Of a stretch of DNA of 64,000 nt, positions 6,001 to 12,000 are shown one piece after another. The first letter of the stretch is position 1; each line of letters opens with the position of its first letter. A program made the position numbers. The DNA lies in NCBI GenBank assembly GCA_016184305.1, contig JACPCX010000178.1, positions 1,618 to 65,617 of the forward strand, in the 5' to 3' direction. The stretch comes from Candidatus Rokuibacteriota bacterium. Its GTDB lineage: Bacteria; Methylomirabilota; Methylomirabilia; Rokubacteriales; CSP1-6.

Positions 6001-9000
6001 CGGGGTGGCCGGACACCGAGGCGAGCGCGGCCTCGCCGAAGATGTAGAGGTCCACCACCGTGACCCGGTAGCCATGGGCCAGGAGCTTGGGCACGAGCAC
6101 CGCCCCCACGTAGCCCGCTCCGCCCGTCACCAGGACATGCCGGAACGCTGTCGCCATGCTCTTCCCTCGCGGCGTGATCTGGGGTGATCTCCCGGGCGGG
6201 GGCCGACCCGACCGCGGCCCGCTCCACGATTGTATGGGTGCTCCCCCCGTTTCGCAAGGAATTCGCCCTCACCCGGAGACTGCATCTCACGAAAAACAAT
6301 GACGTATGGACAGGCGGCTTACCGCTGGGGGGCCCGCCGCCGCCCCCACCCGGTCACCCGCCGGGCCCGAGGTTGAGCAGGCCCTTGAGCGTCCTCATCA
6401 GTCGTGCGGCGGCGAGTCCCCGGCCGGTGCACCGGTACCGGTGGCCGTCCCGCTCGAGGTAGCCGGCGGCCACCAGGCGCTCCATCCTCCGCCCCAGCAT
6501 CACGTCGAAGGAGTAGTACCGCTTGAGCTCCTCCAGGCTGAGACCGTCCTGGGGCCCTCGGGAGAGCTCGATCAGGCTCCGCACGCCGACCGAGTTGTCG
6601 GCCATGTTGAACAGCTGATAGTACCCGGCGAAGAGGAACCAGTAGACCAGGGCGCCGTTGATCCACACGACCGCGTCAGACGGAGCCGACAGAAGCGGCG
6701 GCAGCCAGGCCGCGTCGTCTGGCAGAAGGCGGACGAGCGCCACGTAGCCGGGGAAGCCGAGGAGCCAGAGCCAGAGCATCACAAAGAGCCTCCGCCGGAT
6801 CCTCACGAAGTGATAGGTGACGACCTGGACCCCGAGGAAGGCCAAGAATGTCAGCGCCGCCGCGAGGAGCCCTCGCACGCCTACCCGCCCGGGCCCAGGC
6901 GAAAGAACGATTTCAGGAACGCGAAGGGCTGCGCCTCCCGGCGCCCCCGGGCCGTCATCCGATACCGGTCACCCTCCTTGATCACGGACCCGATGTCCAC
7001 CATCTCGTCGAGTCGACGCGCCACAACCCGGTCGAGCGAGTAGATCGCGGCGACTTCCTCCGGGGTGAGCGCCTGCCCCGGCGCGCGCTCGATCTCGATG
7101 AGGATCCGCGCGGAGAAGCCGCGGTCCACGAGGAAATAGAACATGCTGTACCCCGCGAACAGCAGGCTGTGGACGAGGAGCCCATTGGCGAGATCGATCA
7201 GCCAGCCCGCCCCCGCCCAGCCCGCGGGAATCACCCAGACGTCCGGCGGCGTGACGGCGTACGCCACGATCAGGCCGAGGGCCAGGGACGCGTGGAGCCG
7301 CACCATGGAGCCGAAGCGACGATGGGGCGCGCGGAGGTGGAAGATCGCGAGGTGCAGGGGAAGGAAGGCGCCGAACGCGCCGCACGCGAGCAGGATCCCC
7401 TTGAGCACGGGGCTCCCCTCAGGAGCTCCCGACGGCACCCGGAGAGGCCGCCGCCCGCTCGTATCTCCTCGCGCCGGAGCGCGGCCAGCGCACGCTAGCC
7501 GCCAAGCCTTCTCTGGTCCACCCAGTACCGGACGATCCCGAGCGCCATGGCGAAGCTGGACACCGCGATCAGCGGGTAGTAGAGCACCACCCGCGCATCG
7601 TAACGAATCCATGCCGTGATCGGCTGTAGCGGCCCCAGGAGGCCGATGGGGATGCACAGGAGGATGCTGGAGAGGACGCCTCGCGGCATCAGGTGGTGAT
7701 ACCGGGAGAAGTGCCGCCTTCGCGCCGGCACCCGGTCCAGCCCAACGCGATAGAAGCACCGGGCGAACTCGCGCAGCGACTCCCGGTCGTGGTGGCGCAC
7801 GACGATCTCGGACGCCAGCCGGAGCGTGAAGCCCCGCGCGATGGCGCGCTCGCAGAACTCGACATCCTCTCCGGTCCGGAGCCCCTCGTCGAAGGCGCCC
7901 ACCGCGAGGAACACGGGACGCGGCAGGCTCATGTTGGTCGTGACGAGGTGCCGGGAGAAGTGCAACCGCCCCGGGCGCGCGGACCGCGAGGCGATCCGCT
8001 CCTTCGAGTACGGGATGTTGGTGAGCCAGTGGCAGTAGGAGTCGGCCCGCGCCACGACTCCTTTCCCCACGCCGAGGATCCCGCCACCAAGGATCGTCCC
8101 GCAGAGCGTGTCGTGGGCCCGGACGTGCCGGGAGAGCCATTCGGGGTCTTCCACGACGCAGTCGGCGTCGAGGAAGACCAGCAGGTGTCCGCTGCTCGCC
8201 TCGATGCCCCGGTTCCGCGAGAAGGCCGGGCCGCGGTTCCCGGAGTTCTGGACGATCTTGACGGCCTGGAATTCCTTGAGGGCCCCCAGCGTCCCATCGG
8301 TGGAGGCATCGTCCACCGCCACCACCTCGAAGTCCGGGTAGGTCTGGCGCTCCACCCCCTCCAGGCATCGGCGGATGTGCCGCTCGGCGTTGAAGCACGG
8401 AATGATCACTGAAACGGAAGGGGAGAGCACCGGTCTAGAAACCGAGCAGCTTGGAATAGGTCCGCGGGTCGAAGAGGATGTTCTCCTGCTGGTTGCAGTC
8501 GTGGGTGCAATGGCAGGCCTTGCGCCGGATTCCGTCGACAGCGTCCTTCCATTCGGCGCTCGTCAGGACCTCCTTGAGGGGCGACTTCCGGATGCTGCCC
8601 ACCGGGGGGAGGATCTCGCACGGGGCCACCTCTCCGTTGGCGTAGACGACCACGTGGATCTGGCCGCCGAGGCAGGGAACGACCTGGGTCTCTCGTTCCA
8701 GTGTCTGGAGCTGCGTCTCCCACTTCACGGCCTGGTAGTTCCGCAGCACCGACCTGAAGAATCCCTTCCGGCCGAAGTCGTAGCCGTCGAGGATGTGCTG
8801 CATCGCCTCGCCGAGCCTGCGGAGCGAGTCCATGGATGGCAGGCGGTACAGGGGGTTGATGGGATTGCCTCGCAACAGCAGCAGGGACTGGTAATCGACC
8901 CCCAGGTCCCGGACGTACCGCATGAAGTCCAGGATCTCGCCGGAGTTACGCTCGCAGACCACGGTGTTGACCTTCACGCGCAGCCCGGGGATCTCCCGCA

Positions 9001-12000
9001 GCCGGCGGATGGTCTCGTGTGCCCGCTGGAAGCTTCCCTTCTGGCGCATCTCGTCGTGGGTGGCCTCGAAGCCGTCGAGGGACACCGTGATGATGAGCCG
9101 TCCTTGGTTCTTCTCGTGGATGGCTCCTGCCACCTTCGTGATCCGGTCCGGGAACCAGCCGTTGGTCGGGATCGAGATCTCCCGCGCCCGAAACAGGTCC
9201 ACGACCTCCGCGAGGTCCTTGCGCAGACACGGCTCCCCACCCCCGATGTCCAGCCAGATGAGGTCGTTGATCTCCCCGGCGACTCCGGCGATCTCTTCGA
9301 GGGAGAGGTCGTTGGGCTTCTCCTCGAAGTCCACGAAGCAGTGCTGACAGCGCATGTTGCAGATGTTCGTGACGTGGAGGATGAGATGCCGGAACGAGGG
9401 CGAGATCCGGTACCGGACGACGTCGCCCAGCACCTTCAGGACAGTCCTTGCGCCTACCTGTTGAATGGCCATCGAAGCACTCCCGCCCCTCGGCTCGGCC
9501 CGCGGAGCCAGCGTGACCGGTCACCCGCAGTCGCGTGAAGAATCCCCGGGATCATACCGTATGTCCCCCGGCGGTCACGACCTCAATTTCCGCGGCGCCA
9601 GGGCATGAGGAGCGCGCTCAGTCACATCGCGGCCGCGGAGAAGCACGCCCATCGGGTCGCCGGCAAGACGTCGAGCCTGAAATCGTCCGCGGGTTGGTCG
9701 GCGCCGTACATGGGGAGCGAGAAGGCGGTCGGCTCGCCCCGTGACCGGCTTCGGAGCCGGCGCGGGCAGTCGGGCAGCGCCGAGACTCCGATCGAGCGGC
9801 AGCGACTCCCTACACCCCGACCCGCTCTTCGGCCTTCGACGTCCCGTCCCGGACGACGGGCAGCGCGATGTTGACGCGCCCCGTGGCCTTCCGCTCCTCC
9901 TGGGCCGCCTTCAGCACGACCGTCTTCTGCTTGGCCGAGTCCTTGTCCCACTGGGACGCGCTGAAGGCCGAGGCGTCGTAGCCCTCGATCCTCGGCCGCG
10001 CCCGCATGGCCGGGTTGAGCCAGTTCATGATGGGCTCGGTGATCCGGAGCGGCAGGAACGCCACGGCCATGTTCACCGCCACGTTCACGCCGATGCGGGC
10101 CACGTGGTAGAGCTCGCGCGGCGTGAGGAACCAGCGCTCCGGCAGCTGATACCAGCCCGGCCCCTTCTTGCCCAGGAGGATCGCCGTGACGGCCCGCGGG
10201 GTCACGTAGGTCTTCATGTTGTACTTGATGATGTCTCGCTTGAGCTCGAACTCGCTCGTCGTCTCCGGCACGTAGGGCAGCGGGGTCCTGTCGAAGATGC
10301 TCCGCGTGACGGACAGGGTGCTGTTGAAGTTGCTCCAGCCCGGCTCGATGTGGATCCGGTCGCTCTTCTGCAGGTCGGTGAAGATGGGCGTGCCGGGGTA
10401 CGGGATCAGGTTGTTGTACTTCGAGGCCTGGACCTTCGCGCCCTGGACGACGCGGAAGCTGGTCGCCCGCTCCTCCGCGGTCTCGGTGGGCAGGCCGAAG
10501 ATCATGAAGAGCGAGACGTCGAAGCCGTGCCTCTTGCCGAGATCCACGGCCTCCAGGTGCTGCTCCACGGTCTCCCCCTTGCCGATGAGCTGCGCCAGCC
10601 GGTTCACGCCGGTCTCCATGCCGAAGCCCGCGTGCGTGAAACCCGCCGCCGCGAGGATCGGGACCATGTCGGGCGGGAAGTTGTCCGCCCTGGTCTGGAC
10701 GGAGAACGTGCACTTCTTGTGGAGCCCCGCGTCGATGATCGCGCTGCACACCTCGCTCACGCGCTTGGCCTTGAAGCAGAAGTTGTCATCGTAGAAGACG
10801 ATCTGCTTTTGCCCGTACCGGTTGACGAGCACGTCGAGCTCCTGGACGATGCGGCCGGCAGACTTGTAGCGGTAGGTCGTCCCGGTCAGCATGCGCTGGC
10901 TGCAGTAGGTGCACTTGTAGGGGCACCCGCGGGATGAAGTGATGAAGGCCATGTCGTACTTGGGATTGTCGAACAGCTCGTACGGGAACATGGGGATGTC
11001 GTCCAGATCCGGGATGAGCGGCGCCTCGGGGTTGTGGACGATCCGGCCGTCGCGCGTGAAGCTCACCCCCTTGAGCCTGGTCGGGTCGGCGCCGCCGCGG
11101 AGGGACCGGTGGAGCTGGAGCATCACTTCCTCGCCCTCGCCCCGGACGACGTAATCGATGTGGCCCGTCTGGAGCGCCTCGTCAGGGCGGGCGGTCGGGT
11201 GGAGCCCGCCGGCGACGATGATGGAGTCGGGAAACTCCGCCTTGATCATGGCGGCGAGCTGGTAGGCGCGCACCACGTGCGCGGTCAGGCAGGACAGCCC
11301 GAAGATGTAGGGCCGGTCGAGCCCGGCCACCAGCTCCCGCAGCGCCGACGGTGTCAGCTCGATCAGCTCCTCGTCCACCACGCGACACGTGATGCCGTGC
11401 TTCGTCAGGTAGGCCGACAGGCAGCCGATGGCCACGGGAATGCCCACGGGGACATACCGCGACAGGAACCCGCCAAACTTCTCCTGGGCCGGATTGATGA
11501 ACAGCATCGCGCCTCACTCGCGGGTAACGCTAGATCGCTCGCCGCGGGATGTCAACCTTTTCCTAGGTCGTTTGACTCATCCGGCGACTTCGTCAGGAAA
11601 ACCGGCCAGATGGCGGGCGCGGGGCGCAGTGACCGCCCCATTTCCGCGGCCGCCCCGTCAGCTACGGCCGGCCATGATGGCGTCGACGACCGCGTGGCAG
11701 AGCGCGAGGTGGGTGATCTCGACGTGGCCGTAGGAGTCGGTGGGAACCCAGAAGTTCAGCTCGCCCAGCCGGCGCAGCGGGTTGTCGGGCCGGAATCCTG
11801 ACAGTGTGATGATCCGGCAGCCTGTCCGCCGCGCGGCCTCCACGCCGCGCACGATGTTCTCCGACTTCCCCGAGCTCGAGATGGCGATCAGCACGTCGCC
11901 GGCGTCCGCGAACATCTCGATGGGCTTCTCGAACACGTGCGCGTAGCCGAAGTCGTTGCTGACGCAGGTGAGCAGCGACGGGTCGTTGAAGGCCACGGCC

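Follow-up and report, generated by a model that had tools for sequence, protein, structure and literature searches.

To our knowledge, nearly all known cases of radical S-adenosylmethionine (SAM) chemistry on carbohydrates belong to antibiotic pathways or concern a few lipid head groups. Enzymes such as BtrN, HygY and NeoN act on carbohydrate substrates. In the HpnI/HpnJ, calditol synthase (Cds) and PtmC systems, a glycosyltransferase acts first, and the sugar that it attaches is afterwards remodelled by a radical SAM enzyme (PMC9092360, PMC13459092). Here, we analyse two adjoining genes, encoding a radical SAM enzyme and a family 2 glycosyltransferase (GT2), at positions 7495–9472 of a 64,000-nucleotide stretch of Candidatus Rokuibacteriota DNA (contig JACPCX010000178.1 of assembly GCA_016184305.1), which is referred to throughout as the window. 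We propose, with a probability of about 0.65, that these genes form a dedicated, membrane-tethered carbohydrate-tailoring module of two genes in a cell-surface glycan locus of Candidatus Rokubacteria. On this reading, the pair is a widespread and uncharacterised coupling of radical SAM sugar tailoring to a glycosyltransferase. Full-text searching of the literature gave no paper on a radical SAM–GT2 pair, only the analogies HpnJ, Cds and PtmC and a gene pair in C. jejuni HS:19 that may or may not be related, and none of the curated NCBIfam models describes such a pair. The two genes and the spacer between them are as follows.

8435–9472, minus strand: radical SAM enzyme of 345 amino acids (aa), assigned by Pfam, alignment and AlphaFold2
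8431–8434, minus strand: 4-nt spacer (accg) from the radical SAM stop codon TAG to the GT2 start codon GTG
7495–8430, minus strand: GT2 glycosyltransferase of 311 aa, assigned by Pfam, NCBIfam, alignment, AlphaFold2, fold search and hydropathy

Since the G+C content of the window is about 70%, real reading frames were chosen by the GC content of third codon positions (GC3), which is 0.90 in both open reading frames (ORFs), a bias typical of real genes. The junction reads ...ttc TAG accg GTG..., with the stop codon at 8437–8435 and the GT2 start at 8430, so that the 4-nt distance reported in the initial annotation is confirmed exactly. This spacing is unchanged in five relatives down to 77% identity (L001, L002, L003, L087 and the P0003 contig). 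Because no Shine-Dalgarno sequence is obvious in the spacer, translational coupling of the two genes is likely.

The product of the radical SAM gene matches the Pfam models Radical_SAM (PF04055, 57 bits versus a cut-off of 29.5 bits) and SPASM (PF13186, 29.3 bits versus a gathering score of 21.5, residues 267–326). In an alignment of 28 homologues, reaching down to 41% identity, the CX3CX2C motif (C38/C42/C45) is invariant, as are five C-terminal cysteines, arranged as C267-X17-C285 (with GX4C) and C320-X-C322-T-H-X-C326; the latter forms a CxCTHxC signature that includes H324. A full SPASM domain has seven cysteines, in the order CX9-15GX4C-gap-CX2CX5CX3C-gap-C, which ligate two auxiliary 4Fe-4S clusters. 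The twitch domain is a truncated SPASM domain, with a beta-hairpin cysteine pair, downstream cysteines and one auxiliary cluster. Five invariant cysteines are too few for two fully ligated auxiliary clusters, and therefore the domain is not a true SPASM domain; the full seven-cysteine form is ruled out. The cysteine pattern fits an abbreviated, twitch-like domain, with which the strands predicted by AlphaFold2 at 273–276 and 281–283, between C267 and C285, are compatible. This corrects the earlier designation as far as a full SPASM domain is concerned.

Among the curated NCBIfam models, the radical SAM enzyme lies under every cut-off, including those of anSME, HpnH and MftC. Its top match is TIGR04053, with 79 bits versus a cut-off of 395; none of the anSME models ranks higher. 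The MoaA, AhbD, NirJ, MftC, viperin-like and HpnH models give 50–72 bits, far below their cut-offs. TIGR04053 was followed as a lead and rejected, its haloarchaeal members lying in unrelated gene contexts. The initial annotation had allowed for a firm housekeeping class of the anSME or HpnH kind; the enzyme reaches no curated family. Sequence matches to solved structures (SkfB, BlsE and MoaA) cover the radical SAM core only, that to BlsE having an E-value of 7e-8 over residues 24–201. The AlphaFold2 model (pLDDT 89) superposes best on BlsE, a sugar-nucleoside decarboxylase, and next on SkfB, SuiB, CteB, anSME, DesII and viperins, with TM scores of about 0.5–0.65; the predicted fold places the enzyme in the SPASM/twitch group, and no further. 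In the same model a single N-terminal helix precedes strand 1. Because CX3CX2C begins at residue 38, one helix before the barrel, there is no room for an N-terminal recognition element (RRE) of the kind found in pathways for peptides that are ribosomally synthesised and post-translationally modified (RiPPs).

The partner gives 105.5 bits with Pfam Glycos_transf_2 (PF00535). The GT-A signature is invariant in its alignment (D41, D88, D90, E188 and H213), D88 and D90 being the DxD motif and E188 belonging to TGED, and hydropathy indicates two C-terminal transmembrane (TM) helices at about 247–266 and 281–300. Its AlphaFold2 model (pLDDT 92.6) matches GT2 structures, with TarS, TarP, WrtF, CgT, PcManGT and BcsA as fold neighbours. 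By sequence, its named relatives are EpsD and MftF, which both stay under the NCBIfam cut-off. There are also weak sequence matches to GtrB (5EKP, E 2.6e-4) and DPMS (5MLZ, E 5.8e-6), neither of which is among the 50 best structural matches listed for the model.

The radical SAM–GT2 pairing is real and old. A protein search gave 438 relatives, and about 60 more family loci came from scanning species-representative genomes. In all six relatives whose contexts were first examined, including Rhodospirillales, Desulfobaccales and Pelagibacter, the radical SAM gene is followed by a GT2 gene. The species-representative scan returned family loci from more than 15 phyla, and the spread of the cassette includes SAR11, cyanobacteria (Pseudanabaena sp. 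UWO311), Hydrogenedentes, candidate-phylum bacteria and some archaea; among the carriers are Geomobilimonas luticola, Elusimicrobia, Omnitrophota, Saccharibacteria, Planctomycetota, Verrucomicrobiota and one Woesearchaeote. When all ORFs were clustered, the GT2 family proved to be the sole universal neighbour (60 of 62 non-redundant loci), lying on the same strand in 94% and starting a median of 14.5 nt past the radical SAM stop codon. By tblastn, a homologue of the window GT2 stands directly downstream in 54 of 63 loci. The bit scores of the two proteins co-vary across loci (Spearman 0.51, p 1e-4), and this GT2 is missing from the loci of other radical SAM families in that scan, which served as a negative control (L068–L086). 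Heptose, aminotransferase, E1 and class B radical SAM genes and those of two small membrane proteins accompany the cassette in closer relatives only. The genes around it, in relatives and in the window, encode GmhA-like and HldE-like proteins, short-chain dehydrogenases/reductases (SDRs), DegT, E1, a Wzx-like flippase, NeuB, UDP-GlcNAc 2-epimerase, and YfhO or PMT_2-type membrane transferases. No DNA match to an E. coli O-antigen locus of known structure was found, and the search for phage carriage gave weak, partial matches only.

A profile search of 1.84 billion cluster representatives yielded 1,697 clusters at 50% identity (E <= 1e-30), and eight of the top 150 representatives are single proteins with both domains, in both orders. 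One fusion, P0292, has the radical SAM domain before the GT2 domain and was seen in two independent assemblies. Another, P0310, runs from GT2 through two TM helices to radical SAM; therefore, both catalytic domains are cytoplasmic and the radical SAM domain is tied to the membrane. A relative in Parabacteroides distasonis, 28% identical, keeps CxCTHxC and has a GT1/GT28-type transferase directly downstream, and hence the association is with glycosyl transfer rather than with the GT2 fold.

In several loci, namely L004 (4586–6705 and 10001–11973), L005 and L011, the radical SAM gene family is represented two or three times. L004 has a second radical SAM–GT2 pair, encoded on the opposite strand. 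Such extra copies suggest that the cassette has been duplicated and diversified inside one glycan locus. In L091, a 725-aa radical SAM/SPASM protein (464–2641) adjoins a gene for a GT2–radical SAM fusion and appears to be interrupted by an intein, with Intein_splicing and LAGLIDADG_3 domains. L007 (DATIWG010000051.1), labelled as the archaeon Nitrosotalea sp., carries a copy of the operon that is 81% identical and fully syntenic; the archaeal label is probably a binning error of a metagenome-assembled genome.

Strict pairing and fusion with one partner would also be expected if an activase stood beside its client; the radical SAM enzyme could accordingly be a maturase that modifies, in the manner of anSME, a residue of the GT2 or of another enzyme and thereby activates it. 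It resembles anSME in overall fold and size, anSME being a close fold neighbour. In the C. jejuni HS:19 locus, a glycosyltransferase gene adjoins an 'anSME-like' radical SAM gene (PMC8743553). These genes (CjjRM3420_1440 and CjjRM3420_1441) may or may not belong to the two families of the window pair; the structure of the HS:19 capsule is known. However, the window enzyme scores far under all curated anSME-type cut-offs, and it has five auxiliary cysteines, whereas anSME has seven or eight and two auxiliary clusters. No sulfatase, the partner of anSME, was found among the window ORFs scanned. In addition, the alignment of the GT2 family holds no invariant Cys or Ser target beyond the standard GT-A motifs, and the relative in P. 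distasonis pairs with a transferase of a different fold. A maturase role is thus very improbable.

A peptide product must be weighed as well. The initial annotation had raised a glycosylated, radical-modified peptide as one function of the pair, with a short precursor gene hidden in the 337-nt gap upstream of the radical SAM gene. In such a RiPP pathway, the radical SAM enzyme would modify or cross-link a ribosomal peptide and the GT2 would glycosylate it, the precursor being encoded in the gap or elsewhere. The Pfam SPASM match, the fold neighbours SkfB, SuiB and CteB, the weak similarity of the GT2 to MftF and SunS, and a 29-codon ORF of high GC3 within the gap all speak for it. The gap is real, at the length first given, because the radical SAM ORF has no possible upstream extension. 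It was checked by listing ORFs of at least 20 aa, by a GC3 frame plot, by comparison with a sister-strain contig of 96% nucleotide identity (L087), and by Rfam, RNA folding and repeat searches. The features are these.

9473–9809, no strand assigned: intergenic spacer of 337 nt, lineage-specific
9622–9711, minus strand: 29-codon ORF (MYGADQPADDFRLDVLPATRWACFSAAAM), GC3 about 0.9, without a Shine-Dalgarno sequence, judged not to be a gene
9551–9578, minus strand: sigma-70-like promoter match GTGACC-16-TATGAT, a consensus match only, 79 nt upstream of the radical SAM ATG

The 33-codon candidate named earlier corresponds to 9454–9555 on the minus strand and overlaps the radical SAM start. The GC3-type signal seen at 9600–9800 in the frame plot is the 29-codon ORF, which the initial annotation did not list. 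Compared with the sister strain, the gap diverges by 5.4%, the radical SAM gene by 1.2% and the GT2 gene by 2.6%. The 29-codon ORF carries six differences, distributed 5/1/0 over codon positions 1/2/3 and all non-synonymous, whereas all the real genes in this comparison show an excess at position 3. It is absent from L002 and from the P0003 contig, relatives of the same gene order in which the distance from the class B radical SAM gene to the radical SAM gene is 60 nt and 9 nt, respectively. In L001 and L003, YfhO genes occupy the position of the gap instead. Enzymes of the YfhO type take their sugars from lipid-linked donors, outside the cytoplasm. Proteins of this type, of 876–1778 aa, flank the cassette in L001 (1871–9894) and in L003 (2599–5229 and 7273–10059). 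Loss of a YfhO gene, with the gap as its scar, was also considered: compared by blastx with the L001 and L003 YfhO proteins, the gap gave a 36-aa match of 47% identity (E 0.003 in a four-sequence database), which is suggestive though too weak for a claim, and the tblastx matches of the gap are high-GC noise.

Within 9473–9809, no Rfam match, terminator or notable repeat was detected, and RNA structure is not above background (z = +1.4). The promoter-like segment is unchanged in the sister strain and lies in the better-conserved proximal part of the gap; from its resemblance to the consensus, it may be an internal promoter. These searches of the gap returned the promoter-like match and no supported gene or structured RNA. 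Around the 62 cassettes, none of the ORFs of 18–95 aa is conserved, the BLAST-based clusters consisting of Arg-rich junk and near-identical locus pairs (a very divergent precursor peptide can escape this clustering), and every neighbour is a sugar gene. PqqD has no match among the ORFs of the minus-strand operon (822–16499) scanned against Pfam, and RRE, protease and exporter are likewise absent at the locus. A true RiPP-like context, met by chance in L090 and consisting of a radical SAM gene, PqqD and a small ORF, is unlike this cassette. A hidden precursor in the gap and a modified peptide as product are therefore not upheld, and we consider a RiPP pathway the least probable of the explanations. 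The other suggestion of the initial annotation, radical chemistry on a sugar that may be lipid-linked, fits the sugar context, the pairing across phyla and the membrane-helix fusions.

In the carbohydrate-tailoring module that we favour, the GT2 would be an inverting GT-A enzyme with a DxD motif, held by its two C-terminal helices at the cytoplasmic face of the membrane. It would move a sugar from a nucleotide sugar onto a membrane-bound acceptor, namely a glycolipid or a lipid-linked intermediate of a glycan. The radical SAM partner would cleave SAM at the cluster bound by CX3CX2C, and the 5'-deoxyadenosyl radical so formed would remove a hydrogen from the transferred sugar. Handling of the electron would fall to one auxiliary Fe-S cluster, bound in the twitch-like domain (CX17C...CxCTHxC), and one of the five invariant cysteines, or H324, may serve as hydrogen donor or base. 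The predicted outcome is epimerisation, dehydrogenation or ring rearrangement, so that the product would be an epimer, a keto-sugar or a sugar with a rearranged ring. We favour a reaction on the sugar that takes place once it has been transferred, or at the membrane, because the fusions tether the radical SAM domain to the membrane; we hold it at somewhat less than even odds, and as somewhat more likely than action on a soluble nucleotide-sugar donor. It is possible, and here suggested tentatively, that the cassette installs a hitherto undescribed radical modification on lipid-linked or surface glycans, as a portable unit of two genes, sometimes one, in more than 15 phyla. The modification could be ring contraction or conversion to a carbocycle, epimerisation at an unactivated carbon, or formation of a new C-C or C-O linkage.

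Action on the soluble donor is a sub-case of the carbohydrate reading, with another substrate and another order of steps. By epimerisation, deoxygenation, oxidation or decarboxylation, the radical SAM enzyme would turn an ordinary nucleotide sugar into a rare one, in the way of DesII and BlsE, and the GT2 would serve that sugar as its dedicated transferase. Most sugar tailoring in glycan loci takes place at the level of the nucleotide sugar. Enzymes acting on nucleotides (BlsE, DesII and viperin-like enzymes) are among the fold neighbours, the usual gene order has the radical SAM gene before the GT2 gene, and fusions of donor synthesis to a transferase exist, for example the NTP_transferase-GT4 protein in L091. 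However, a soluble enzyme would scarcely need near-universal adjacency and fusion to a membrane-anchored transferase, and the HpnI/HpnJ, Cds and PtmC pairs are believed to act after transfer (PMC9092360). Donor modification is thus our second choice, at somewhat lower odds.

The membrane fusions are open to yet another explanation, since they hold both enzymes at the membrane: the radical SAM enzyme could act on a lipid acceptor (a polyprenyl lipid, a hopanoid-like lipid or another membrane lipid), which the GT2 would then glycosylate. The GT1/GT28-type partner in Parabacteroides is annotated as 'lipid glycosylation', and SPASM-type domains occur on many lipid-modifying radical SAM enzymes (PMC13459092). 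The cassette, however, lies in polysaccharide-type loci with flippases and sugar-nucleotide genes and not with lipid-synthesis genes, and the HpnH model (TIGR03470) reaches only 50.2 bits versus its cut-off of 225 bits. A modified lipid acceptor is therefore improbable.

Several points weigh against the carbohydrate-tailoring module itself. The family is without any characterised member, and hence the substrate, the reaction and the order of the two steps are inferred. The fold neighbours that follow BlsE, namely SkfB, SuiB, CteB and anSME, act on peptides or proteins and have similar scores; fold by itself cannot tell a sugar substrate from a peptide one. Among the named families nearest to the GT2 is MftF, the transferase of a pathway to a peptide-derived cofactor. 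Polyprenyl-phosphate transferases of the GtrB, DPMS or ArnC type combine a GT2 catalytic domain with a C-terminal TM hairpin; neither sequence nor fold specifically supports a GtrB- or DPMS-type assignment of the window GT2, and membrane tethering is no proof of a membrane-bound substrate.

The cassette lies within a long minus-strand operon, which runs from about 16499 down to 822 and contains the following other genes.

14820–16499, minus strand: polytopic membrane protein of 559 aa without a family match, with homologues in L002 and L007
13767–14810, minus strand: SDR-type nucleoside diphosphate (NDP)-sugar dehydratase or epimerase (Pfam/NCBIfam)
12221–13756, minus strand: HldE-like bifunctional heptose kinase and nucleotidyltransferase (Pfam/NCBIfam)
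11658–12224, minus strand: GmhA-like sedoheptulose-7-phosphate isomerase with a SIS domain (Pfam/NCBIfam), its GTGA start overlapping the HldE stop
9810–11507, minus strand: class B (B12-binding) radical SAM enzyme of 565 aa (Pfam PF02310 and PF04055)
6881–7408, minus strand: small membrane protein of 175 aa, with three TM helices and a winged-helix-like C-terminal domain, ending in LGPGG
6354–6878, minus strand: paralogous small membrane protein of 174 aa, ending in LGPGG
5156–6157, minus strand: SDR-type NDP-sugar epimerase or dehydratase (Pfam/NCBIfam)
4039–5154, minus strand: DegT/PseC-type sugar aminotransferase (Pfam/NCBIfam)
2927–4042, minus strand: second DegT/PseC-type sugar aminotransferase (Pfam/NCBIfam)
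1881–3035, minus strand: thiamine pyrophosphate (TPP)-dependent E1 alpha subunit
822–1865, minus strand: E1 beta (transketolase-like) subunit

On the plus strand, from 16469 onward, follow genes for a Wzx-like flippase, a MptE/Maf-like protein, NeuB, a GFO/IDH oxidoreductase, HisF/HisH-like proteins, UDP-GlcNAc 2-epimerase, a methyltransferase and a YfhO fragment. From this gene content, the region is a large locus for surface glycans, with heptose, aminosugar and nonulosonic-acid chemistry at its core. The polytopic protein at 14820–16499 is possibly a GT-C-type transferase, and the E1 alpha product likely takes part in two-carbon transfer onto a keto-sugar. GmhA-like, HldE-like, two SDR, two DegT and E1 alpha/beta genes are combined on the minus strand (822–5154 and 11658–14810); this set points to a higher-carbon diamino sugar with a two-carbon unit as extension or branch, and the block is syntenic in L001–L003, L005, L007, L011 and L014. 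The second glycan block, at 18402–33598, holds the MptE/Maf-like, NeuB, GFO/IDH, UDP-GlcNAc 2-epimerase and methyltransferase genes and the HisF/HisH-like pair, and resembles a pathway for nonulosonic acids of the legionaminic or pseudaminic type; it includes a 245-aa ORF that matches YfhO only at the C-terminal end of the latter. Far from the main glycan operon, a 616-aa PMT_2-type (GT-C) membrane glycosyltransferase gene at 50378–52228 adjoins pyruvate:ferredoxin oxidoreductase-like genes.

The class B radical SAM gene does adjoin the cassette, as first annotated, its product being a B12-binding and radical SAM protein (PF02310, 57 bits; PF04055, 82 bits). It reaches no NCBIfam cut-off, its best named matches (BchE, ApyD and HpnJ) all lying far under, and it is a variable neighbour, present in 14 of the 62 loci. 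On the other side of the cassette, the small membrane protein at 6881–7408 has a GTG start at 7408, preceded by GGGGAG. It and its paralogue at 6354–6878, each of about 175 aa with two to three TM helices and a winged-helix-like C-terminal domain, have no Pfam or NCBIfam family. The paralogue family gave 41 matches, centred on Rokubacteria and relatives, and occurs in about 12 of the 62 cassette loci; in the distant L004, L005, L010, L011, L013 and L014, one LGPGG-type paralogue still terminates in Gly-Gly.

With about 1,700 clusters, the radical SAM family is large. Adjacency and fusion lock it to a glycosyltransferase, and it occurs in ordinary cell-surface glycan loci, its carriers being many uncultured lineages and a few cultured ones, such as Geomobilimonas luticola JCM 17780 and Pseudanabaena sp. 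UWO311. If surface glycans are indeed modified by radical chemistry in this way, a widespread and unrecognised glycan chemistry would be at hand. The reaction, once worked out, would be a new tailoring step in bacterial glycobiology, and it would explain unassigned genes in islands resembling those of O-antigens and capsules, including the glycosyltransferase-rich loci of SAR11. For genome mining, the combination of SPASM and a glycosyltransferase should not be taken as a signature of RiPPs. The conserved pairing itself offers a direct experimental handle.

Among the known systems, mycofactocin is similar in having a SPASM-type radical SAM enzyme (MftC) and a GT2 (MftF) in one locus, and MftF ranks first or second among the named matches of the window GT2. 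It differs in that the window proteins score 67.3 versus 265 bits (MftC) and 117.4 versus 280 bits (MftF), in that the MftA precursor, the MftB RRE, MftD and MftE are absent at the window, and in that MftC has the full SPASM motif. In overall superposition, the model of the window GT2 fits best with PcManGT (6YV7), a minimal membrane GT2 of the cellulose-synthase-like kind, and BcsA (TMq 0.64); ranked by E-value, the best are TarS, TarP and WrtF. The window GT2 shares with transferases of the PcManGT/TarS/TarP type a GT-A core and C-terminal helices; identity is only 13–21%, and specificity for acceptor or donor is not transferable at that level.

The twitch sugar enzymes BtrN, HygY, NeoN, SpeY and BlsE (PDB 7VOB) resemble the window enzyme in size (250–360 aa), in being without an RRE, in the N-terminal radical SAM motif, and in a C-terminal beta-hairpin cysteine pair followed by a short cysteine cluster. 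They differ in belonging to antibiotic pathways, where they show neither pairing nor fusion with a GT2. Specific to the window family, and not to these enzymes, is the CxCTHxC signature, and sequence likeness to BlsE is confined to the radical SAM core. HpnI/HpnJ, which makes the bacteriohopanetetrol cyclitol ether, is distinguished from the window pair by the B12-binding domain that HpnJ carries in place of a twitch/SPASM domain. The window radical SAM enzyme and GT2 lie far under the HpnH and HpnI cut-offs, as does the class B enzyme under that of HpnJ, and the window locus is without hopanoid or tetraether genes. Nevertheless, the HpnI and HpnJ genes adjoin as the window genes do, and the hopanoid glycosyltransferase is a GT2. 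In HpnI/HpnJ, archaeal Cds and pactamycin PtmJ/PtmC alike, a glycosyltransferase places a hexose on a membrane- or carrier-bound acceptor, the arrangement that the carbohydrate-tailoring module of the window would share.

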